A stretch of DNA of 64,000 nt from a virus (taxonomy: Duplodnaviria > Caudoviricetes): the IMG/VR virus record IMGVR_UViG_3300025127_000001, positions 562 through 64,561 of that record; one strand, 5' to 3'. The notes under the pieces were generated by a model. It saw only the letters and a list, made by a program, of their open reading frames with translations. It was not told the origin of the DNA and ran no database searches. Positions 22,093-49,691 of the stretch are shown in pieces. The position numbers were made by a program, and so were the translations under genes. Positions within the stretch are counted from its first letter, which is position 1, and every line of letters begins with the position of its first letter.

Positions 22093-25000
22093 ATGGAAGA
22101 GCTAGAAGTTATTGTACAACGTATGATTGACGCTGGAGAACCTGAAGAAAATATTAAACTAGTAATAGAAGAATATAGTAGAAGACAGGGAAAGCTAGCA
22201 GGTGTTGCGGAGACGGATGCAACTGTAGCACCGGAGCCAATAGCATCCGAGAGTACGGGATCAAACTTGGAAGATGGTTCTTTGGATTTAGATATAAAAG
22301 ATAGATCTATACCTAAAACTCCTCAAGGTGAATTAGTTTATGGTGATCAAAGAAGTTTTGATCAACAGATTATTGATTTCCAAAAGAACTATAATGACGC
22401 TATATTAGGTCAAGGTAAATATTCTTTTTTAGCTGATAAACCTAAAGCAGATAGATTACTTTTTGCTGATAAAATGGTTTCTAAACCTAGATACTTTAGC
22501 TCTGTTTATAACAAGTCTAAAGACAAGTATGAGGTTAAGCCAAGTAAAGGTATGTATGATAGAATATCTAGTTACTTACCTGATGACTTTAATTTATACG
22601 ATACACCTGAGCAATTTAATCAAGCGTTAGAAGATGGTAGAGCTCAAGCTCTACAACAAGATCCTATTGTAACTCAAATGTTAGAATCAAGATCTGCTTT
22701 GATGTCTGACGATTATAAAGAGTGGGAAGCTAACAAACGTAATGAATGGGATTTAACTACAGAAGAAGGTGTTATAGCTGCTAATAAAGAAGCTAATGAA
22801 TGGTTTTTAAAAAATATAGTTGAACCTGTAGAAAACTCTCAAACATTTAAAAGAGTGTTTAACGAGTACACAGACGTTACTGAAGCTATAATGGGTGAAA
22901 GACATGTGGGTTATGGTAGAAGTAAAGATCCGTTTTTAAGCAAAGACCCTAGTTCTTTACGTGAAGGCTGGAGGAAAGGTTGGAAACAATTTGGTTTAGG
23001 TTTTGAGAAAGCTGGTTTAAGTGCTGAGCATGGCGCGCTAGAAGATTATCTTGTAGAATTAAACGGCTTGCTAGATAAAGATCCAAATGAAGAAGTAAGA
23101 GTTAAACAAAAAGCTTCTATGCCTGCAAGTGCTTATGGTGCTGTATCAATAAAACCAGATAGAAGACTTACTGCTGAGGAAAGATCTAAAGAGTTGATAG
23201 ATCTTATTCTACAAACACAAGATAATATTAAGGGTAAAGTAAAAAACATAGCAGGTAAAGAAGCTGAATTAGGTTTATATAGAGCACCTGATTATGATGA
23301 TGGTATTAGTTTAGAAGACATACTTTTAACAACAGGTGAAGCAGGTTCTAGTTTAGTTGTTGTTGGTGGATCAGCTGCGCTAAGTCCATTTACTGGAGGA
23401 GCTAGTGGTGTGCTTGGTTTAACAGCTATGTTTGGTAGTATATATGGTCAGAACTATTATGATACTATATTACAAGGTTTAAAGGAAGACGGTATAGATG
23501 CTTCAAACCCTGAATTTGATAAACTAGTTGCTGAAGCTATTAGTGAAGGTAAATATGCGAATAGAGCTGAAGTCGCTGGGTTTGCAGCTGTAGAAACTGG
23601 ACTAGAAAGACTTGGTGCAGCTCCGCTTGTAAAAAACTTTATTAAGTCTATAGGACTTGGAACGTTAAACAAGAAAACATCTGCATCGTTATTTAGAAAC
23701 CAATGGAAACAGTTTGCTAAAAACGCTCCACAAAACGTTAGAGCTGTTGGTACATCTGGTTTAAGAGAAGCTGGAACTGAAGCTGGTCAAGCTGGTGTAT
23801 CTCAATTAAGTAAAGGTATACAGTTAGCAGATGATTTTGAAAACATAACTGCTACAAGTTATTTTGATCCAGCTGAAATAAGAGATAATGCTATAGCTGG
23901 TGGTATAGTTGGTGTTGTTACTCTTGGCGGTGGTAAGGTTGCTGGTCAAGCAACTATTGAATCTAGACAGTTATATAGAACTGCAGCAACAAGATTTAAT
24001 TCAAGAGACGCAGAAAGTATTAAAATAGTAGAAGCTTATTTTAAAAATCAAGAAAACAATTTAAAAGGAGATCTTGCTGCTAATAAAATAAATCAAGATC
24101 AATACGATAATCAAATGCAAGAGCTATCTAACGCTCGTAATGCTGGTTACAATATACCTTCTAACTTTAGTATTGAAAACAAAGAAAGATCTTTTGATCT
24201 TATAATGGAACGAAACGGTTTAAACAAACAGCTTAAACAACAAGACGATGCGCTTGCTCAACCTATAAAAGATCGTATAAAAGAAATAAATACAGAGCTT
24301 GCTGAGATAGGTAAGTCAGAGTTTAGTACACAAGTTATTGGTGGTGCTACTAAAATATCTAAAGCTCTTGATGTTCCTATAGAATATTTTAAAGATGACG
24401 CAGCTGTAACAAATAAGTTAAATGAACTTGAACAACAAGGTTATAATGTTGGTGATAAAAAAAATACTAACTTTGGTACTATTGTAGAAAATAGTGATGG
24501 TGATAAATTTATATTAATAAATCAAGCTAGAAACGAAGGTAAAGCTACAACAGAAGCTCATGAAGTTCTGCATGCTATATTATCACAAACAATAGGAACA
24601 GATGCAGAGCTTGCTAAAAAAATTGGTACATCGTTATTAAATGAGCTGACTACAAATAGTAAGATATTAGATTTAACAGATAACTTTGCTACACGTTTAG
24701 CTGGTTATGATTTAGAAAATAACCCACAAAACTTTGAAGAAGTATTAACACTGCTTAGCGAGGAGATGCTTGAAGGCAGAATTGTTTACAATGAAAGTGT
24801 TATGGAACGTATAGGTAGAATATTATCCGAAGCTTTTGCTAAGCTAACAGGTAAACCTATTACGTTTGAAAACGGTAAAGATGTATTTAACTTTGTAAGA
24901 GATTATAACAAAAGTGTTATAAAGGGTGAATTAACTGGCAGACAAAAAGCAGCCGCGGTAGAAGGTATACAAGTTGGAGATATTGATAGTGATGGTACAA

Positions 25001-28000
25001 GAGGACCATTAGCTTCTGGTACTGTAGTAGAAACAATTAACAATATAATACCTGAAACTATAACTACAAAAGATCAGTTTCAGTCTGACCCAAGAGTTTT
25101 TGGAGATGCGTTTAAAGCTACAGAAAAAGGTGGTGTAATATACAACTATGTTAATTCAAGGTCTAGTAGTAAAGAGCAAGCTGATGGTACATTAAGAAGT
25201 ATACAGGAAAGGTTATTAAACTACGACCCAGCAACAGGTAAATCATTTGCTGAATTTATTTTTTCTAACACTAACTTCGCTAGATTAGACGCTAACAAAG
25301 CTTTATTTAAAGAAAGCCAAAGACAAAGAACAGAAGGTACTAGCATAGACAGTGAACAAGCTAGACAAGTTGTAGATCCATCGACAGTATCAGGACCAGC
25401 GGTTGATGTGACTGTAGACGAAAAGGTTACAACTAAAATTGATCCATTAAGCTTTGAAAAAGTTACACCAGAAAAGCAAACTAAGATTAAAAATATAGTT
25501 GATATTAAGTCAGAGGACGTATCTAAGATCACACCTAAGGAACTTAATAATAGATACGCTGGTAAAGTTGCAGAAGTAATATTTGAAGTTCCTGAAACTA
25601 AAATTACCGACGCAAAGAAAAACTTAACTTACGCTAAAAAAATAGTAAAAGGAGTACAAGAAAAGTCTGAAGCTGGTAATATACAAGAGTTTTTTAGAGT
25701 TGGTCAAAACATGAAAAACTTTATTAAGATATTACCTGAGTTTAATGTAGCGCAAAATGAGGGTGATATATCTGATGTGGGTATTGAAGGTGAGAGTATA
25801 GCTGTAGACCCAACTGTTAAAGGTGTTTCTGTAGGTATTAACAATAGGTTGTTAAATTATTTCTACGAAGACTTTGTAGATCCAACAGGTGCTATTACTA
25901 CACCAGGTGGAAGGAGTAAAGGTTTAACTAGTCAAACAAAAGTTAAAAGATTAAAGCCTGAGTTTAGAAATCCTACACAAGAAGTTATAGATCAGGTTAA
26001 AGTAGATATAGGTATTACACCTCGTGGAGAGCTTAATCAATATGACAGAAGTATAGGTCAGATGTTAAAGGGAATGGCGAAACTTCAGGCGCAAAATACT
26101 GTAAGCAGGGCGGCCCGCCAAAAAGTAAAAGCACTTCCTGGTATTGAGCAAACGAAAAAACGCCAAACCGTGGCTAACATTACTAGTACAAAATCTAGAA
26201 TTATGGCCTCACAAGTGTTTGAAGAAACACTTAATGACCTACAAAAAAGTGATGTAGCTACAGAATATGATGCTGCTAGAAATAATAAGATATGGAAGCG
26301 TATAGCTAAAGATGTGGGTGTAGATTTTATTGAAGCAACTAACGAAGCTGATAGAGTTAAGTTCAAAGCTTTTGTATTAGAGAAATTACCTAAATATCTA
26401 CCACAAGCTTTCTTTACACCAGGCACTTTTGCTGGCGCCGGTAAGTCTGGTTATAAAAGAAACTTTTTCTTTTTAAGTAAAGATGAATTAACAGACTTAA
26501 TACGAGGAGTAGAGTTTGCAAAAGAAAACAAAGCTATTACGGCCGCTGTTACTAAAACCAATATTACCACTGGCACGGGTAAAAATAGAAAAGTATCTAA
26601 CGTCGCTATGCGTAGGTTTGAAGATGGTACTATAGCTAAAGAAAATAAATTAAAACAAAAAGGTTTAGAAGATATATTTTTAGCTCTTGAAAAGATGATG
26701 AAAGATGATAAGTCTACTATACCATTTGTTATATCATTACTTAGTAGCACTAGTCAATATCAAGGGCATTTCATGAGAGCAGCATCACCATGGACCTTTA
26801 TATCTAAAGATATAGAAAACGATGCTATTGTAGAAGAACACGTGTTACCTGCTAGTCTAGTTTCTAAGTATTTGTTTGCATCGGCATTAGAAGGTAAGAT
26901 TAAAAAGAATTATCCTGATGTAAAGAAAAATTATTTTCAAGGTATACTGTCTGATACAAACGATAAGAAGTTAAAACTAAGAGGCGAATTTAATTATCAA
27001 AGTATGCCGCCTGCTGGTTGGCAGATGTCAGATAATATATGGGCTAGATATTTTAATACCAATGTTGGTAATAATAATTTCGGTATAAGTCCTAGTGATA
27101 TTGTTTTAATAAATAAAAAGACAATAGCTCAAGAACTAAACATAGATCAATACGGTAACACAGTACCTAGAACATTTGCATCTCAACAAGAAAAAGCTTC
27201 TGAAAAAGATAACAAGATATTAGCTAAATCTATAAGACCAGTAAAAGCTAGTAAGTCTTTACCTACAAACTTATCGTTAAGTAAATTAGTAGACGAAGCT
27301 TTAAACAAAGCTAGAGATCCTAGAGCTTCTGAAAAAGGTATTAGTGTATTTGATTTTGATGATACTGTAGCTACAAGTAAAAGTATGGTTATAGTTAATA
27401 TGCCTAACGGTAATACTAAAAAAATTACTCCAGCTGAGTTTGCAAAACAACACAGCACACTAGAAGGGCAAGGGGCTAAGTTTGATTTTAGTGAGTTTAA
27501 TAAAGTTGTTGATGGGAAGCCTGGGCCATTAGCTGCTAAAATGGAAAAAGCAATTAATAAGTTTGGAAACAAAGACGTATTTATACTTACAGCTAGACCA
27601 CAAGAATCAGCTCAAGCTATATATGATTTTTTAAAAGGTATAGGTTTAGAAATACCACTAGGTAATATAACAGGTTTGGCAGACGGAACACCACAAGCAA
27701 AGGCTAGATGGATAGTAGGTAAAGCAGCTGAAGGTTACAATGACTTTTATTTTGCTGACGATGTATATAAAAATGTTAAAGCTGTACAAGACGCATTAAG
27801 TGTATTAGATGTTAAATCTAAAATAAGACAAGCTAGAATATTGGCAAGTAAAGATCTTGATAAAGACTTTAACGACATTATAGAAAACAAAACAGGTATT
27901 GCTTCTGAAAAAACTTATGGTCAAGTTAAAGGTGAAGTTGCTGGTAAAGATAAAGGTAGGTTTAATATATTTGTTCCACCGTCAGCTGAAGATTTCGTAG

Positions 28001-29847
28001 GTTTATTATACGCTACGTTAGGTAAAGGTAAAGTTGGTGATTCACAGATGGCTTGGTACAAAGCTAATTTATTAGACCCATATGCTAGAGCTATGACTAA
28101 TATATCTCGTGCTAGACGAGCAATGTTTGAAGATTACAAAGCATTAAAGAAACAAATAAAGATTAAACCAAAAGATCTTAAAAAGAAAGTACCAGGTGAA
28201 CCATTTACACGCGAGCAAGCTGTAAGAGTTTATATATGGAACCAACAAGGTATGGAAGTTCCTGGTATAAGTAAGGCAGATAATAAAGATTTAGTTGACT
28301 TTGTTAATAAAAACGAAACACTAAAAACATTTGCTGACCAATTAATAGGTATGCAAAAAGGTACAGAGTATGCTGCGCCTAAAGTAGGTTGGCCAGCTGG
28401 TACTATAACAACTGATTTATTAAACACTATAGGTACTGTTAAAAGATCTTTGTATCTACAACAATGGCAGGAAAATGCTGATATAATATTTTCTGAAAAG
28501 AATATGAATAAGCTTGAAGCTGCGTTTGGTAAACCATATAGAAAAGCTTTAGAAGGTATGCTAGCTCGTATGAAGAGTGGTCGTAATAGAAGCTTTGATG
28601 GTGATACAATGACTGGTAAATTTACAGACTGGTTAACAGGTCAAATCGGTACAATCATGTTCTTTAATACTAGATCAGCTTTACTACAGTTAATATCATC
28701 TGCTAACTTTGTAAACTTTACAGACAATAATATATACAACGCTGCTAAAGTGTATGCTAATCAACCTCAGTATTGGAAAGATGTAATGATGTTAATGAAC
28801 TCAGACTTCTTAGTTGAAAGACGTAGTGGTTTAAGGTTTAACGTTAATGAGTCTGATATTGCTGACATGGCTAAGCAAGCTGGATACAGAGGTGTTGTAT
28901 CTAAGTTGTTACAATTTGGTTTCTTACCAACACAAATAGCTGATAGTTTAGCTATCGCAACAGGTGGCGCTACTCTTTATAGAAATAGAATTAATACATA
29001 CAAGAAACAAGGTATGGATCAGAAAGCTGCAGAAGAAAAAGCTTTTCAAGATTTTAGAGAAATAGCTGAAGAAGCTCAGCAGTCTAGTAGACCTGATAGA
29101 ATATCCGCACAACAAGCTGGACCATTAGGTAGAATAATATTAGCATTTGGTAACACACCTATGCAGTATATGAGGTTAATTAAAAAAGCCGCGTCTGATA
29201 TTAAAAATGGTAGAGGTGATTTTAAAACAAATGCTTCTAAAATAGTTTACTACATGCTAGTTCAAAACTTAATATTCAACGCCCTGCAACAAGCTATATT
29301 TGCTGTAGCATTTGGTGACATCGAAGAGGAAGATGAAAATAGTAAGTATGTAAACATAGCTAATGGTATGGCGGACTCATTATTAAGAGGTATGGGTATT
29401 GGTGGAGCTATTGTTTCTATAGGAAAAAATGTAGGTAAAAGAATATACGACGAAAGCCAAAAGAAAAATCCTAAGTTTGAAAAGATAGGTTATGAAGTTG
29501 CTAAGTTATCACCTCCATTATCAGCTAAGCTTTCAAGAATAAATCAAGCAGCAAGATCGTACCAATGGGATAAAGATAAAATGATGAGTGAAGGATTGTC
29601 GCTTGAAAACCCTGCGTACTTAGCAGGAGCAAATATTATTGCAGCTACTACAAACATACCATTAGATAGAGCAATAAAGAAAACAAACAATGTTGTACAA
29701 GCTACAACTCAAGACTTAGAAACCTGGGAAAGGTTTGCATTGCTAGGTGGTTGGCAAGACTGGGAACTAGGTATTGAAGACGAAGAAAAAAAGAAAACAA
29801 AAAAGAAAAAATCATCAAATAAAAAACGTAGATTCGTAATAGATTAA
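22093..29847 (+). CDS. Giant multidomain internal virion protein (zincin HExxH, sigma-like, HNH-like and HAD domains)
   Basis: 2584 aa; HEVLH at ~aa 823; sigma region-2-like segment ~aa 1010-1090; EEHVLP; HAD motifs VFDFDDT/ILTAR/FADD. Confidence 0.7.
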   Translation: MEELEVIVQRMIDAGEPEENIKLVIEEYSRRQGKLAGVAETDATVAPEPIASESTGSNLEDGSLDLDIKDRSIPKTPQGELVYGDQRSFDQQIIDFQKNYNDAILGQGKYSFLADKPKADRLLFADKMVSKPRYFSSVYNKSKDKYEVKPSKGMYDRISSYLPDDFNLYDTPEQFNQALEDGRAQALQQDPIVTQMLESRSALMSDDYKEWEANKRNEWDLTTEEGVIAANKEANEWFLKNIVEPVENSQTFKRVFNEYTDVTEAIMGERHVGYGRSKDPFLSKDPSSLREGWRKGWKQFGLGFEKAGLSAEHGALEDYLVELNGLLDKDPNEEVRVKQKASMPASAYGAVSIKPDRRLTAEERSKELIDLILQTQDNIKGKVKNIAGKEAELGLYRAPDYDDGISLEDILLTTGEAGSSLVVVGGSAALSPFTGGASGVLGLTAMFGSIYGQNYYDTILQGLKEDGIDASNPEFDKLVAEAISEGKYANRAEVAGFAAVETGLERLGAAPLVKNFIKSIGLGTLNKKTSASLFRNQWKQFAKNAPQNVRAVGTSGLREAGTEAGQAGVSQLSKGIQLADDFENITATSYFDPAEIRDNAIAGGIVGVVTLGGGKVAGQATIESRQLYRTAATRFNSRDAESIKIVEAYFKNQENNLKGDLAANKINQDQYDNQMQELSNARNAGYNIPSNFSIENKERSFDLIMERNGLNKQLKQQDDALAQPIKDRIKEINTELAEIGKSEFSTQVIGGATKISKALDVPIEYFKDDAAVTNKLNELEQQGYNVGDKKNTNFGTIVENSDGDKFILINQARNEGKATTEAHEVLHAILSQTIGTDAELAKKIGTSLLNELTTNSKILDLTDNFATRLAGYDLENNPQNFEEVLTLLSEEMLEGRIVYNESVMERIGRILSEAFAKLTGKPITFENGKDVFNFVRDYNKSVIKGELTGRQKAAAVEGIQVGDIDSDGTRGPLASGTVVETINNIIPETITTKDQFQSDPRVFGDAFKATEKGGVIYNYVNSRSSSKEQADGTLRSIQERLLNYDPATGKSFAEFIFSNTNFARLDANKALFKESQRQRTEGTSIDSEQARQVVDPSTVSGPAVDVTVDEKVTTKIDPLSFEKVTPEKQTKIKNIVDIKSEDVSKITPKELNNRYAGKVAEVIFEVPETKITDAKKNLTYAKKIVKGVQEKSEAGNIQEFFRVGQNMKNFIKILPEFNVAQNEGDISDVGIEGESIAVDPTVKGVSVGINNRLLNYFYEDFVDPTGAITTPGGRSKGLTSQTKVKRLKPEFRNPTQEVIDQVKVDIGITPRGELNQYDRSIGQMLKGMAKLQAQNTVSRAARQKVKALPGIEQTKKRQTVANITSTKSRIMASQVFEETLNDLQKSDVATEYDAARNNKIWKRIAKDVGVDFIEATNEADRVKFKAFVLEKLPKYLPQAFFTPGTFAGAGKSGYKRNFFFLSKDELTDLIRGVEFAKENKAITAAVTKTNITTGTGKNRKVSNVAMRRFEDGTIAKENKLKQKGLEDIFLALEKMMKDDKSTIPFVISLLSSTSQYQGHFMRAASPWTFISKDIENDAIVEEHVLPASLVSKYLFASALEGKIKKNYPDVKKNYFQGILSDTNDKKLKLRGEFNYQSMPPAGWQMSDNIWARYFNTNVGNNNFGISPSDIVLINKKTIAQELNIDQYGNTVPRTFASQQEKASEKDNKILAKSIRPVKASKSLPTNLSLSKLVDEALNKARDPRASEKGISVFDFDDTVATSKSMVIVNMPNGNTKKITPAEFAKQHSTLEGQGAKFDFSEFNKVVDGKPGPLAAKMEKAINKFGNKDVFILTARPQESAQAIYDFLKGIGLEIPLGNITGLADGTPQAKARWIVGKAAEGYNDFYFADDVYKNVKAVQDALSVLDVKSKIRQARILASKDLDKDFNDIIENKTGIASEKTYGQVKGEVAGKDKGRFNIFVPPSAEDFVGLLYATLGKGKVGDSQMAWYKANLLDPYARAMTNISRARRAMFEDYKALKKQIKIKPKDLKKKVPGEPFTREQAVRVYIWNQQGMEVPGISKADNKDLVDFVNKNETLKTFADQLIGMQKGTEYAAPKVGWPAGTITTDLLNTIGTVKRSLYLQQWQENADIIFSEKNMNKLEAAFGKPYRKALEGMLARMKSGRNRSFDGDTMTGKFTDWLTGQIGTIMFFNTRSALLQLISSANFVNFTDNNIYNAAKVYANQPQYWKDVMMLMNSDFLVERRSGLRFNVNESDIADMAKQAGYRGVVSKLLQFGFLPTQIADSLAIATGGATLYRNRINTYKKQGMDQKAAEEKAFQDFREIAEEAQQSSRPDRISAQQAGPLGRIILAFGNTPMQYMRLIKKAASDIKNGRGDFKTNASKIVYYMLVQNLIFNALQQAIFAVAFGDIEEEDENSKYVNIANGMADSLLRGMGIGGAIVSIGKNVGKRIYDESQKKNPKFEKIGYEVAKLSPPLSAKLSRINQAARSYQWDKDKMMSEGLSLENPAYLAGANIIAATTNIPLDRAIKKTNNVVQATTQDLETWERFALLGGWQDWELGIEDEEKKKTKKKKSSNKKRRFVID

Positions 29848-39847: not shown

Positions 39848-39856
39848 ATTAATTAA

Positions 39857-40582
39857 TTAAAGGGTTTTGTTAATAAAATATTGTGAAGCATCAAAGTCTT
39901 TTGTTTTGTAAAATAACTCATAAGCTTCTGTCGCCTTACGTACTTTGTCAAGCCCACGCTCTAAAAAGTCTGACGAACAATCAAACAAGCCTATTTGATG
40001 AGTGTTTTTATCTATAACAATAAATAACATTTCGTAACCAAATAGTTTGTTATAAATGTATGCTTGACTGTCGTAATTATATTTCCAGGCTGATCTTGAA
40101 AAAGCCATTATGTCATTAGTAGTTTTTAAATCAATTACTAATTTTTCATCATGGTTAATAATATCAGCTTTGCCTTTCCACATATTACCCTCAAGCTTTG
40201 TTACGCCAGGTTGTTCATATTCTACGTTGTTACCACGAATAAGATCTTTACATATTTTATTATTTAATATCTTATCTGACATAACATCTATCATGTCAAC
40301 TTCGTGTTGTAACAAGCATAGCTCGCCGCCTGACATCTCTTTATAAGCCTTCGTGTTCCTAGTCGATGAAGGTATTACTAGGTATTTCTTCAACTTATCT
40401 GGTTCAAGAATAGCTGTGTGAAAATATCCACCAACTAAGAACGCTGCTGAAGGCTTACTTGGTTTCCCAAGCAATAAAGGATTTTTTAGTAACGTACTGA
40501 TGTCAGAATTACTAAGATACTTCTTACCGAACTCACCGTAGTAATGTTTGTCATCACGTAGTTTTTCTATTATTTTATCCAT
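39857..40582 (-). CDS. PD-(D/E)xK exonuclease (RecE/ExoVIII-like)
   Basis: LS.S.I, G..FH..ILEP, KGKAD, IDLKTT, Y..QA..Y. Confidence 0.85.
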   Translation of the reverse strand: MDKIIEKLRDDKHYYGEFGKKYLSNSDISTLLKNPLLLGKPSKPSAAFLVGGYFHTAILEPDKLKKYLVIPSSTRNTKAYKEMSGGELCLLQHEVDMIDVMSDKILNNKICKDLIRGNNVEYEQPGVTKLEGNMWKGKADIINHDEKLVIDLKTTNDIMAFSRSAWKYNYDSQAYIYNKLFGYEMLFIVIDKNTHQIGLFDCSSDFLERGLDKVRKATEAYELFYKTKDFDASQYFINKTL

Positions 40583-43476: not shown

Positions 43477-43555
43477 AAAGTTTGTCTAATAATATCATAG
43501 CCACCTCGTGACTTATCATATTGTCGTTATATAGTTTCCATATTAATTTACTCAT
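43442..43555 (-). CDS. Small hypothetical protein (start at MSKLIW)
   Basis: Internal ATG overlapping the ligase 3' end. Confidence 0.4.
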   Translation of the reverse strand: MSKLIWKLYNDNMISHEVAMILLDKLYERLNHKRYGR

Positions 43556-44381
43556 AATTGCGTAAACATTTAAACAGCGGGTGCCTATAGCTACCAGCTT
43601 GAGTTCGTTGAAAATAGGTAAAGGTTGCACGCTTGCCAATATAAGATTGAACATCTTTGAGCATTTTAGCCAAATCCTTGTAGGAATAGCCTTTACCCGG
43701 CGGACAACCGAACTCTACACCTTCGTCATCTAGCATAATGAACTTGCCAAGTGTGCCTGTCCTTTTGCCTTTACCTAATTCATAACCTATGATTGTTGCT
43801 TCGGTATCGCTAAAGTCTTTGAATTTCATTAGATCGTAAGACCTACCGTGTTTGTATATACCACTTCCTGTGCGTATAATAGAACCTTCGTAGCCCTCAC
43901 TAAGATATGTCGCGTGAAGATCCCTAGCATAATTGTAACTATCAACTAGCTTAGCAGGTACGTATTTAACTTGTACGTCATAAATATCTGACACAACAAG
44001 ATTTTGCATACGAGTTTTGTAGTCATCATAATTACCATCAATGTAGTCATACACATGAAACTGTACTAGATGCTGGGCGTCAAGCCTGTCATCTTCGGTA
44101 GGTTTTTGCTTACGAACTAATGATATAATCTTTTCAAAGTCACGCTTTAGCTTGTGATTATAAAGCTCGCCATCGAGCACCATGTGTGGACTAGTATTAA
44201 ATAATGGTTGTAAAGCCATTTCAATATGCCTTACATTCATAAATTGTTTGCCGCTACGTGAGAACGCACCGTCTTTAGTAAACACACATCTGACACCGTC
44301 TAGCTTTGGTTGTATGTACACAGGTTCACTGAAGTCAACACGTGACTCATCGAACTTGTGCGCTAGCATAGGTTTTATCAT
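43548..44381 (-). CDS. ATP-dependent DNA ligase
   Basis: PMLA, KLDGVR, LDGELY, YEG, R...LMKFK, RHP. Confidence 0.93.
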   Translation of the reverse strand: MIKPMLAHKFDESRVDFSEPVYIQPKLDGVRCVFTKDGAFSRSGKQFMNVRHIEMALQPLFNTSPHMVLDGELYNHKLKRDFEKIISLVRKQKPTEDDRLDAQHLVQFHVYDYIDGNYDDYKTRMQNLVVSDIYDVQVKYVPAKLVDSYNYARDLHATYLSEGYEGSIIRTGSGIYKHGRSYDLMKFKDFSDTEATIIGYELGKGKRTGTLGKFIMLDDEGVEFGCPPGKGYSYKDLAKMLKDVQSYIGKRATFTYFQRTQAGSYRHPLFKCLRNYE

Positions 44382-45401: not shown

Positions 45402-45421
45402 AATTATTAATTTAAAGTTAG

Positions 45422-45495
45422 TTGCGGGAGTAGGATTCGAACCTACGACCTCAAGGTTATGAGCCTTGCGAGCTGACCAACTGCTCTATCCCGCT
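45422..45495 (-). tRNA. tRNA-Met(CAT), initiator-like, no encoded CCA
   Basis: AGCGGGA TA GAGC AGTTGGTCA GCTC G CAAGG CTCATAA CCTTG AGGTC GTAGG TTCGAAT CCTAC TCCCGCA A; 1:72 mismatch, A11:U24. Confidence 0.92.
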
Positions 45496-46417: not shown

Positions 46418-46447
46418 ATTATCGATTTTTATTTGTATTAGATTTGT
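46418..46447 (-). promoter_or_regulatory. Class I early promoter-like repeat
   Basis: ACAAA-TCTA-ATACA-AATAAAAA-TCGATAAT. Confidence 0.75.
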
Positions 46448-46814
46448 AATTTCTTAAGTAATATTCAACAATAAATACTAGTCTAGTCATTTCTTCGTAT
46501 ATAAGAGTTCTAGCCCAAGCAGTACCTTTTCTTACATAAGTTTCACCTGTGTCTCTATCTAACCACATCCATCTGTCTTCTCTTTGATACTTAGGATTTA
46601 GTTGATAAATTCTGTCACTGCTATTACATCTACGAACGTAACCGCTTGAATATGAGCCAAGTAGCTCACCACCGGGACAAAGAAATATTCTTGTACCGTT
46701 TTTAGCTTGTCTTTGAGTCGTGACCTCTTTGAGACCATACTCAACAAGCATTCTTCTAGCATATGTATCACATAACATCTGCCGTTCTTGTTGCCAAGTG
46801 TAAGTGTTTTGCAT
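46419..46814 (-). CDS. Hypothetical protein
   Basis: 131-aa ORF. Confidence 0.6.
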   Translation of the reverse strand: MQNTYTWQQERQMLCDTYARRMLVEYGLKEVTTQRQAKNGTRIFLCPGGELLGSYSSGYVRRCNSSDRIYQLNPKYQREDRWMWLDRDTGETYVRKGTAWARTLIYEEMTRLVFIVEYYLRNYKSNTNKNR

Positions 46815-46836
46815 TGTTTATTTATTTTAAGATTAG

Positions 46837-46916
46837 TGGACGTGGCAGGATTCGAACCTGCGTTTGCTACTGGATGTCTCATAGAGATCACAGCTTGCAC
46901 TAACCATTTCACGCCC
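46837..46916 (-). ncRNA. tRNA-like RNA A: Ala-type acceptor, no D stem, no anticodon loop (resembles tmRNA tRNA-like domain)
   Basis: GGGCGTG/CACGTCC-A acceptor with G3:U70; T arm GCAGG-TTCGAAT-CCTGC; central 35-nt irregular hairpin. Confidence 0.7.
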
Positions 46917-46920
46917 TTAT

Positions 46921-47085
46921 GAGAGGCACCAGTCTCGGACCGGTACTAACTAGTATTATGCTTTATCCGAGCTTTTGACCAGTATGCCGCCGCCTCTCTG
47001 CCACAACGCCGGTCTGCCGACATCTTCCGCTAAGAAGCATTTCTTATTGTGGCTATTATGTAGTCTGCCGCTAACAGCAGCACCT
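46921..47085 (-). ncRNA. Unassigned structured RNA
   Basis: GC-rich non-coding tract with helices CTGCTG/CGGCAG, GCCACAAT/GTTGTGGC, GAGAGGC/GCCTCTC, CTCGGA/TCCGAG. Confidence 0.5.
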
Positions 47086-49565: not shown

Positions 49566-49587
49566 ATTGTTAGATTTAATAAGTTAG

Positions 49588-49691
49588 TGGATAAGGTGGG
49601 AGTCGAACCCACATGCCATACACAACTTACGCCATTGACCGAAGCCAAATTGTAGCCATTGCATGATACACTACTGTCCATGTAGTTACCC
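49588..49691 (-). ncRNA. tRNA-like RNA B: Ala-type acceptor, long UUCG-capped arm in place of anticodon arm
   Basis: GGGTAA/TTATCC-A with G3:U70; T arm GTGGG-TTCGACT-CCCAC; TTGGC-TTCG-GTCAA apex. Confidence 0.6.

Follow-up and report, generated by a model that had tools for sequence, protein, structure and literature searches.

A tag-less tmRNA-like RNA in a marine phage genome and the viral RNA family around it

Introduction

What use could a phage have for a transfer-messenger RNA (tmRNA) that carries no message? The question is raised by an 80-nucleotide (nt) element on the minus strand of a 64,000-nt stretch of viral DNA (positions 562 to 64,561 of IMG/VR record IMGVR_UViG_3300025127_000001), which was analysed at its full length and is hereafter called the window. 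The window makes up nearly all of a complete viral record of 64,561 base pairs (bp) with direct terminal repeats and a G+C content of about 34%. A first-pass annotation had described the element as a minimal tmRNA-like RNA with an alanine-type acceptor, no anticodon and no tag frame. Judged by its sequence, the element is a tmRNA without coding sequence (CDS), consisting of the tRNA-like domain (TLD) only, of the same kind as that of mycobacteriophage DS6A. The kind is thus already known from one phage, and what is new here is this member together with the size, the conservation and the modular centre of its family.

Architecture of the element

The layout proposed for positions 46837-46916 of the minus strand matches the sequence base for base. 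From 5′ to 3′, the parts measure 7, 10, 35, 3, 5, 7, 5, 7 and 1 nt, giving 80 nt in total (Table 1). The acceptor stem of 7 bp comprises G1-C72, G2-C71, G3:U70 and four further pairs, and the discriminator is A73; the alanine-type acceptor is therefore seen directly in the sequence, and the G3:U70 pair is kept across the family described below. The stem-less GG loop, the 3-nt linker and the perfect T arm are likewise present as proposed, in the sequence as well as in the fold. The trailer reads CUA, so that CCA is not encoded.

The minimum-free-energy fold gives the acceptor, the T arm and one irregular central hairpin, with an energy of -28.0 kcal/mol and a z score of -3.09, and none of 200 shuffled sequences is equally stable. 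The central helix sits at the position of tmRNA helix 2, standing in for the entire mRNA-like and pseudoknot part. This 35-nt hairpin is the only one separating the D-loop analogue from the T arm; pseudoknots PK1-PK4 and the long helix 2/5 are absent. A D stem and an anticodon loop are also absent from the element, the terminal loop having 3 nt, and the central part of the window element holds no frame that starts with GCN and reaches a stop codon before the T stem. Everything needed for tagging is absent from the element.

Table 1. Positions of the element, its parts and neighbouring RNA features in the window
Feature	Coordinates	Strand	Basis or remarks
Whole tag-less tmRNA-like RNA, G1 to discriminator A, 80 nt	46837..46916	-	sequence, fold, RF00023, model R1
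Acceptor 5′ strand GGGCGUG	46910..46916	-	G3 at 46914
D-loop analogue AAAUGGUUAG, without D stem, 10 nt	46900..46909	-	conserved GG and G17
Central capped helix, irregular, 3-nt loop, 35 nt	46865..46899	-	fold; single occurrence in window
Linker AAC ahead of T stem	46862..46864	-	A54 and C55 align to AC of GGACG in RF00023
T arm, perfect 5-bp stem, 7-nt UUCGAAU loop	46845..46861	-	sequence
Acceptor 3′ strand CACGUCC and discriminator A	46837..46844	-	U70 at 46840, A at 46837
3′ trailer CUA	46834..46836	-	in place of encoded CCA
Structured GC-richer module just upstream	46921..46998	-	hairpin 46928-46944: 7 bp, 3-nt loop
Second, weaker TLD-like element, 107 nt	49585..49691	-	G3:U70, A73, CUA trailer
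tRNA-Met (CAT)	45421..45495	-	ARAGORN; RF00005 66.4 bits; sole ordinary tRNA in window

Detection by tRNA and tmRNA models

The Rfam tmRNA model, RF00023, aligns with the element from end to end (46834-46916 against model positions 1-374), 326 model positions being replaced by 36 nt. The match has 34.0 bits and an E-value of 3.3e-11 for the 4-kb stretch searched in E-value mode, and it outscored the other families of the Rfam tRNA clan at the element, where only the best-scoring family per clan is reported. This score lies under the gathering cut-off of 47 bits, and a search at gathering thresholds reported only the tRNA-Met and missed the element; neither the gathering nor the E-value search listed any other Rfam family there. 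The tmRNA-like layout claimed in the first-pass annotation is borne out by the end-to-end alignment and by the conservation of G17, A54 and C55 that is described below, whereas recognition at the Rfam threshold is not obtained. In a similar manner, ARAGORN called the tRNA-Met alone and neither a tRNA nor a tmRNA at the element, which gives no positive identification but fits a structure without cloverleaf and, together with the 3-nt terminal loop, the claim that there is no anticodon.

Similarity searches at the DNA level gave no match for the locus among GenBank phages, and the 83-nt element alone retrieved only T-arm matches to assorted tRNAs. The exact two-block pattern of the window element has no match in viral contigs when the window's own record is excluded. 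Several other identities were considered and rejected. An ordinary tRNA (RF00005) is ruled out by the missing D stem, the missing 7-nt anticodon loop and the lack of an ARAGORN call; an intron-containing or odd-anticodon tRNA-Ala is rejected because the loop has 3 nt and the centre is not conserved; and a two-piece (permuted) tmRNA is rejected because the two acceptor strands are found in their usual order on a single stretch of 80 nt.

Conservation and covariation in related phages

The protein encoded just downstream led to five related loci, four of which carry the element in lengths of 76-126 nt. In one of these loci, C4:G69 is replaced by A4:U69, a compensatory change with G3:U70 kept. 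IMG/VR was then scanned with a pattern in which only the conserved ends were fixed, including G3:U70 and the first C of the trailer. Candidates with a total length of ~60-90 nt occur on at least 120 viral contigs, and scans for longer centres gave 69 and 29 stretches with 85 unique sequences, five of which contain ordinary tRNAs, in some cases two tRNAs side by side. Among the 90 unique short sequences ARAGORN called six tRNAs and no tmRNA, and all 175 unique sequences together likewise yielded no tmRNA call; most family members also fall below the Rfam tmRNA cut-off. The alignment A1 contains 81 of the 90 short sequences, the six tRNAs, L096, L041 and a second register of L063 having been dropped. 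These RNAs are called mini-tmRNAs, or minis, in the following.

Three stem positions were left free by the pattern, namely 4:69 and two T-stem pairs. All of them are paired in 81/81 members and show 4-5 pair types each. Acceptor position 4 covaries with position 69 in every member. For the three free positions, the covariation score is 0.381 compared to 0.088 for column shuffles (0/500 reach the observed value) and at most 0.124 for slid partners. Covariation across related phages, which had been named as a check on the structure, is therefore found at the positions where it could vary freely. G12 is invariant in A1, and at least 90% of the members retain the unpaired G17, A54 and C55, none of these bases being imposed by the pattern. 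In the alignment with RF00023, G17 falls on the consensus G of UUCGAC, and A54 and C55 fall on the AC before the T stem (A334-C335 in E. coli). In the same alignment, G17 and A54 are the counterparts of E. coli G19 and A334; a G19 to C change prevents SmpB binding by E. coli tmRNA, and A334 lines a pocket for SmpB Trp122 (PMC8363625). The central helix is paired in only 62% of the cells of A1, a gap-prone alignment, and single-sequence folds of 71 of the 81 members show the acceptor, the T arm and a closed central helix. The trailers are CUA in 35 members, CCA in 20, CAA in 15 and another sequence in 11, the first C being imposed.

The alignment A1 served to build a covariance model, R1, which gives the window element 69.8 bits (E 7.4e-14) and has 93 matches at E <=1e-4 in 90 further sources. 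As a control for the specificity of G3:U70, the scan was repeated with positions 3 and 70 free, which gave 119 stretches. Loci with G3:U70 that had already been found account for 56 of these, and the other 63 are new loci with 60 unique sequences. ARAGORN identified 51 of the 60 as ordinary tRNAs, mostly Tyr, Lys, Leu and Met, and at most four of the nine uncalled sequences are stem-less and TLD-like. Since the new loci are mostly ordinary tRNAs, G3:U70 belongs to the architecture and did not arise from the search itself. That related phages conserve the element, with covariation in its stems, shows that it is no chance resemblance. The putative contact features by which a tmRNA meets alanyl-tRNA synthetase (AlaRS), SmpB, EF-Tu and RNase P are present and, as their conservation indicates, under selection.

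The central hairpin

The centre of the minis carries no message. GCN-to-stop frames occur in 20 of the 81 members compared to 22.1 +/- 3.5 for shuffled sequences, and nothing tag-like is encoded; the claimed absence of a tag frame thus holds for the window element and is matched by a family in which such frames are not enriched. The terminal loops of the central part have 3-6 nt, with 7 nt in only one case of 82. Among the 25 members that share the acceptor type of the window element, the centres have a median identity of 0.51, the same as shuffled sequences, and the tRNA-like parts that were not imposed have a median identity of 0.77.

In the relative L184, an unaltered copy of the window's hairpin sits within an additional stem, and hairpin modules recur among different minis as well as in the form of free-standing intergenic hairpins. 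This suggests that hairpin cassettes are exchanged between intergenic sites and the centres of minis. One 21-nt hairpin module (loci L003/L223, L011, L058, L064, L076 and L185) is found in the centres of three minis, and the same module stands free near minis in four loci on three contigs. Some phages carry two minis with different centres (L189 79-260, L153 341-917, L178 123-541). In L189 the two abut with only CUA between them, and the first has A3:U70 and is probably not chargeable with alanine.

Comparison with known tag-less and full-length tmRNAs

The closest known counterpart of the window element is carried by mycobacteriophage DS6A, which Hudson, Lau and Williams (2014) list as "TLD only" and which has an entry on the tmRNA Website. 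The same paper states that a DS6A-like molecule is a strong inhibitor of tmRNA in E. coli whether or not it can be charged, perhaps because it titrates SmpB; Mao et al. (2009) is cited for this. A tmRNA database paper of 2025 repeats the statements on DS6A as TLD-only and on inhibition. We located the DS6A element at 28478-28560 of JN698994, with 80 nt up to the discriminator; it has 43.2 bits with RF00023, below the cut-off, and 44.9 bits (E 1.5e-9) with R1. The inhibition experiment reportedly goes back to the 2009 work of Mao and colleagues. R1 was built without DS6A, and its recovery of DS6A places the window element in the known TLD-only kind. Both RNAs are phage-borne, have 80 nt, and share a 7-bp acceptor with G3:U70 and A73, a stem-less GG loop, one capped central helix, a T arm and a CUA trailer. 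They differ in that DS6A is a temperate actinophage with an integrase, whereas the window phage has no integrase and is related to flavobacterial podophages; the host phylum is another one, the acceptor and central sequences are unrelated, and DS6A keeps the canonical CGAC where the window element has UAG.../...AAC.

Compared to bacterial tmRNA (RF00023), the window element shares the acceptor with G3:U70 and A73, the D-loop analogue, the AC before the T stem and the T arm, but it lacks the mRNA-like domain, the resume and stop codons, the tag frame and the pseudoknots and measures 80 nt rather than ~320-400. The tmRNA TLDs of two Bacteroidetes metagenome-assembled genomes (MAGs) have the same layout as the element. 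With tRNA-Ala it shares G3:U70, A73 and the T arm, in the absence of a D stem, an anticodon and a 7-nt loop. CDS-less tmRNAs have been described from jakobid mitochondria and, in forms of ~65 bp, from Mallomonadaceae plastids (PMC11915505). By description, these organellar RNAs (jakobid RF02544 and those of Mallomonadaceae) are similar in having little beyond the TLD and no tag frame, and different in that they are organellar and paired with a nucleus-encoded SmpB. Full-length phage tmRNAs (Cellulophaga phages phi38:1 and Calle, and the two-piece form of Melnitz) are marine-phage homologues of ssrA, some of them in distant relatives of the window phage, and unlike the minis they keep the coding part. 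Our literature search found no paper that treats tag-less RNAs of this sort as a family or reports them for marine or flavobacterial phages; DS6A is the sole phage tag-less tmRNA named in the papers found, and database tables may list more.

Genomic setting

The genome encodes a terminase, a portal protein, ribonucleotide reductase, primase-helicase, DNA ligase and a GroEL-like chaperonin. The large terminase shares 62% identity with the counterpart in an uncultured podovirus and 31-45% with the terminases of Flavobacterium, Cellulophaga and Tenacibaculum podophages, and the locus is present in marine and seawater metagenomes from 15 studies. Neither a tyrosine integrase (PF00589) nor an RF-1/ArfB-like or peptidyl-tRNA hydrolase domain was found in the window genome, and Rfam finds no full-length tmRNA in the window. 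Pfam and PHROGs searches of ten small neighbouring open reading frames (ORFs) assigned no function, and the sole named protein near the element in these searches is the DNA ligase at 43548-44381. At a distance from the element, an ORF of 2584 amino acids (aa) on the plus strand (window 22093-29847) has no PHROG match, and its neighbours of 1773 aa and 553 aa match a virion structural family.

Downstream of the mini, the start codon of ORF 46419-46814 follows 19 nt past the CUA trailer and 22 nt past the discriminator. The tRNA-Met, whose 1:72 pair is mismatched, lies 1.3 kb downstream of the mini on the same strand. In the relatives L006 and L007, a tRNA-Met stands directly before the homologue of ORF 46419-46814 and the mini sits elsewhere, indicating that the two RNA genes swapped places around the same gene block.

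The intergenic 174 nt upstream of the mini fold with a z score of -2.71 and form a mosaic of modules like the structured one in Table 1. In 10 unique relatives, a conserved module core of ~55 nt stops 2-11 nt short of G1 of the mini, and a 126-nt metatranscriptome contig covers the upstream module at 46912-47016. The module may be a candidate promoter, a leader or a separate small RNA. The second TLD-like element of the window has a C-C mismatch at 7:66, scores 27.0 bits with R1 (E 3.5e-4) and 19.1 bits with RF00023 (E 3.6e-5 for 2.1 kb), and folds no better than shuffled sequences (z -0.31). The motif upstream of it, CTCGAGTATAAA..AGTTGAA, is found again ahead of an acceptor/T-arm minihelix of ~47 nt in L004 near 1490-1570. 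A family of ~50-nt minihelices is seen in L167, L211, L213/L343, L342, L344 and L345, with no copy in the window. These have a covarying 7-bp acceptor, a T arm and a conserved connector that starts with CUACGGUACU; they lack a central hairpin as well as G3:U70, and they have U or A as discriminator and mostly CUA as trailer.

Distribution and origin

Among 26 long records that bear a mini, 18 have a terminase 67-80% identical to that of the window and eight have no match, and a related terminase is found on at least 600 contigs. Ten records were picked by terminase alone, of which three carry a mini with G3:U70, one an A3:U70 variant and one only a 50-nt minihelix; the remaining five, all 45-75% complete, gave no match. 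Two of the three complete records picked in this way carry an alanine-type mini.

No full-length tmRNA is present in any of 29 mini-bearing records. The minis of four relatives exceed the Rfam tmRNA cut-off, with 52.5-67.6 bits, and one of these belongs to a phage whose terminase is 80% identical to that of the window and has a 5′ part that resembles the Bacteroidetes tmRNA motif GGUUUUGACAGC. A full-length tmRNA of 360 nt occurs in Cellulophaga phage phi38:1, a cultured distant relative, which makes it plausible that the minis descend from a tmRNA of the Bacteroidota type that lost its middle. The 3′ 25-mer of the window element occurs 12 times across one genome each of 185,579 species, in five ordinary tRNAs and in seven minis on MAG contigs, and never in a full-length tmRNA. 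The MAGs holding minis also have their own normal tmRNAs.

A further mini was found in a cultured phage of another group, whose host is harmless. Microbacterium phage Gack (PP978884, ~39854-39945; L411 139-230) carries an unannotated alanine-type mini of 92 nt, with 50.7 bits in R1, between its annotated tRNA-Asn and tRNA-Gln. Elemo phage of Flavobacterium and Cellulophaga phage phi13:2 gave no mini match, and MW202828 carries a degenerate version whose acceptor has 4 bp. A look-alike in Tenacibaculum phage Gundel_1 (73061-73132; L251 1501-1572) has G3-C70 rather than G3:U70; this element of 72 nt lies before a tRNA cluster, is not called by ARAGORN and has 32.4 bits in R1. A paper on North Sea flavobacterial phages gives a tmRNA count of 0 for Gundel and 1 for Calle. 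Candidates in Corynebacterium phage phi16 and two Vibrio phages proved to be tRNA-like genes and not minis.

Possible functions

How might such an RNA act? The explanation that we consider probable on balance, from the conserved sequence features, is that the RNA competes with host tmRNA for SmpB, and also for EF-Tu and AlaRS, and so would block or divert tagging and decay during infection. RNase P and 3′ trimming would release the RNA from an early-region transcript, after which CCA would be added. Host AlaRS would recognise G3:U70 and A73, host SmpB would recognise the D-loop analogue, G17 and A54, and EF-Tu would bind the acceptor/T-arm stack. Having no resume codon and no tag, the RNA could not complete trans-translation, and the competition with host tmRNA would result in tagging and tmRNA-dependent decay of mRNA and protein being blocked or diverted. 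No SmpB is encoded in the window genome, as judged by a domain search, or in any of the 26 mini-bearing records, including 11 that are at least 90% complete, which is counted as dependence on the host SmpB. Six public RNA runs hold part of a 901-nt stretch of the locus, and a metatranscriptome contig of 1452 nt spans the mini of a relative; the assembled contigs show neither transcription nor the ends or level of an RNA.

Several observations weigh against competition with host tmRNA. The window copy stays below the Rfam tmRNA cut-off (34.0 vs 47 bits), its D-loop analogue is one base shorter than the E. coli counterpart, it has AG...AAC where canonical tmRNA has GAC...GGAC, and it does not encode CCA. 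A few members have A3:U70 (the first copy in L189, L342 and L382), so that alanylation may not be essential, and the ~50-nt acceptor/T-arm minihelices of relatives, which are without alanine identity, hint at a more general use of tRNA mimics. The assembled contigs of four metatranscriptomes held short divergent pieces of relatives and no sign of expression. A scan for sigma-70 promoters and terminators, which did not extend to Bacteroidota and phage promoters, found nothing directly upstream. Moreover, the cited inhibition experiment was carried out with the DS6A element in E. coli and not with a member of this clade.

The same contacts could instead serve the ribosome. In a tag-free rescue, the alanylated RNA together with host SmpB and EF-Tu would accept the nascent chain and free ribosomes without marking the product for proteolysis, release following after drop-off, hydrolysis or a further round; the phage would then gain rescue capacity rather than inhibition. 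G3:U70 and A73 are indeed kept much more strictly than a sponge for SmpB would require, and the stack offered to EF-Tu is intact. In addition, jakobid CDS-less tmRNAs persist along with SmpB and are thought to aid in dealing with incomplete mRNAs (PMC11915505), and a truncated tmRNA with SmpB and EF-Tu has been seen bound to the ribosome in a crystal structure (PMC8363625). We nevertheless regard rescue as unlikely. A ribosome that is given neither a resume codon nor a stop codon cannot terminate, the phage has no RF-1/ArfB-like or peptidyl-tRNA hydrolase domain that could release the chain, A3:U70 variants occur, and the cited experiment saw inhibition whether or not the RNA was chargeable. 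An improbable role, still less expected than rescue, is that of punctuation in RNA processing, where the fold would act as a signal for RNase P or 3′-end formation, cut the early polycistronic transcript and set the 5′ end of the downstream mRNA. The short distance from the mini to the start codon of ORF 46419-46814 (22 nt), the tRNA-Met found at the same place before the homologous ORF in L006/L007, the minihelices without alanine identity and the tandem arrays of such elements would all suit this role. However, a cleavage signal needs neither G3:U70 nor A73, nor a tmRNA-type D-loop analogue with G17/A54, all of which are conserved, and the likeness is to tmRNA and not to tRNA.

The exchanged central hairpins and the multiple copies in some phages resemble fast turnover under a defence conflict, and a phage anti-CRISPR protein has been reported to work with tRNA and tmRNA fragments (PMC11662646). 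The minis might accordingly act as decoys, drawing off a host nuclease or defence system directed at tRNA or tmRNA, or they might soak up some other host factor that binds tRNA. This is quite improbable in our estimation: the element has no anticodon loop to attract anticodon nucleases, the literature search found no defence system aimed at the TLD of tmRNA, and no protein partner is linked to the element, its neighbours having no Pfam or PHROG function. For a decoy of anticodon nucleases in particular, which the first-pass annotation had proposed, nothing was found in the literature or in the analysis of the locus. That the element is merely a relic, left by the decay of a tRNA-Ala or of a full-length phage tmRNA or by an attachment site in host ssrA, is the least credible of these explanations. 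The full-length tmRNA of phi38:1, which makes descent by loss of the middle plausible, and the degenerate look of the second element at 49585-49691 would fit it. Against this stand the compensatory changes and invariant unpaired bases across phages with terminases 67-80% identical, the presence of both acceptor halves, and the lack of a D stem or 7-nt anticodon loop. An attachment-site remnant was rejected in particular because there is no tyrosine integrase, the 3′ 25-mer is in no full-length tmRNA of the 185,579 species' genomes, and the 5′ half is present. The possibility, raised at the outset, that homologues would reveal a decaying tRNA or an attachment-site remnant is largely refuted by the conservation.

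Perspectives

Competition with host tmRNA, as favoured here, can be placed in a wider and more speculative setting. Tag-less tmRNA mimics may possibly be a widespread phage tool against ribosome rescue, or for hijacking it, in a global marine clade related to flavobacterial podophages (at least 600 contigs by terminase) and in other phage groups, actinophages among them. A core facing SmpB and AlaRS would be joined to an exchangeable hairpin cassette that is shared with intergenic hairpins and maybe adds a second specificity. In such a setting, repeated rounds on an mRNA-free ribosome could add untemplated alanines. We hold this broader proposal to be doubtful at present.

The class is missed by standard annotation with ARAGORN and the Rfam cut-off. 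The presence of the family in hundreds of viral contigs, together with the unannotated copy in the cultured phage Gack, makes the role of a message-less tmRNA directly testable. If these RNAs block SmpB, they would be natural inhibitors of trans-translation, a process pursued as an antibiotic target (PMC10653918), and lytic phages would be shown to manipulate ribosome rescue. The answer would bear also on the CDS-less tmRNAs of mitochondria and plastids.

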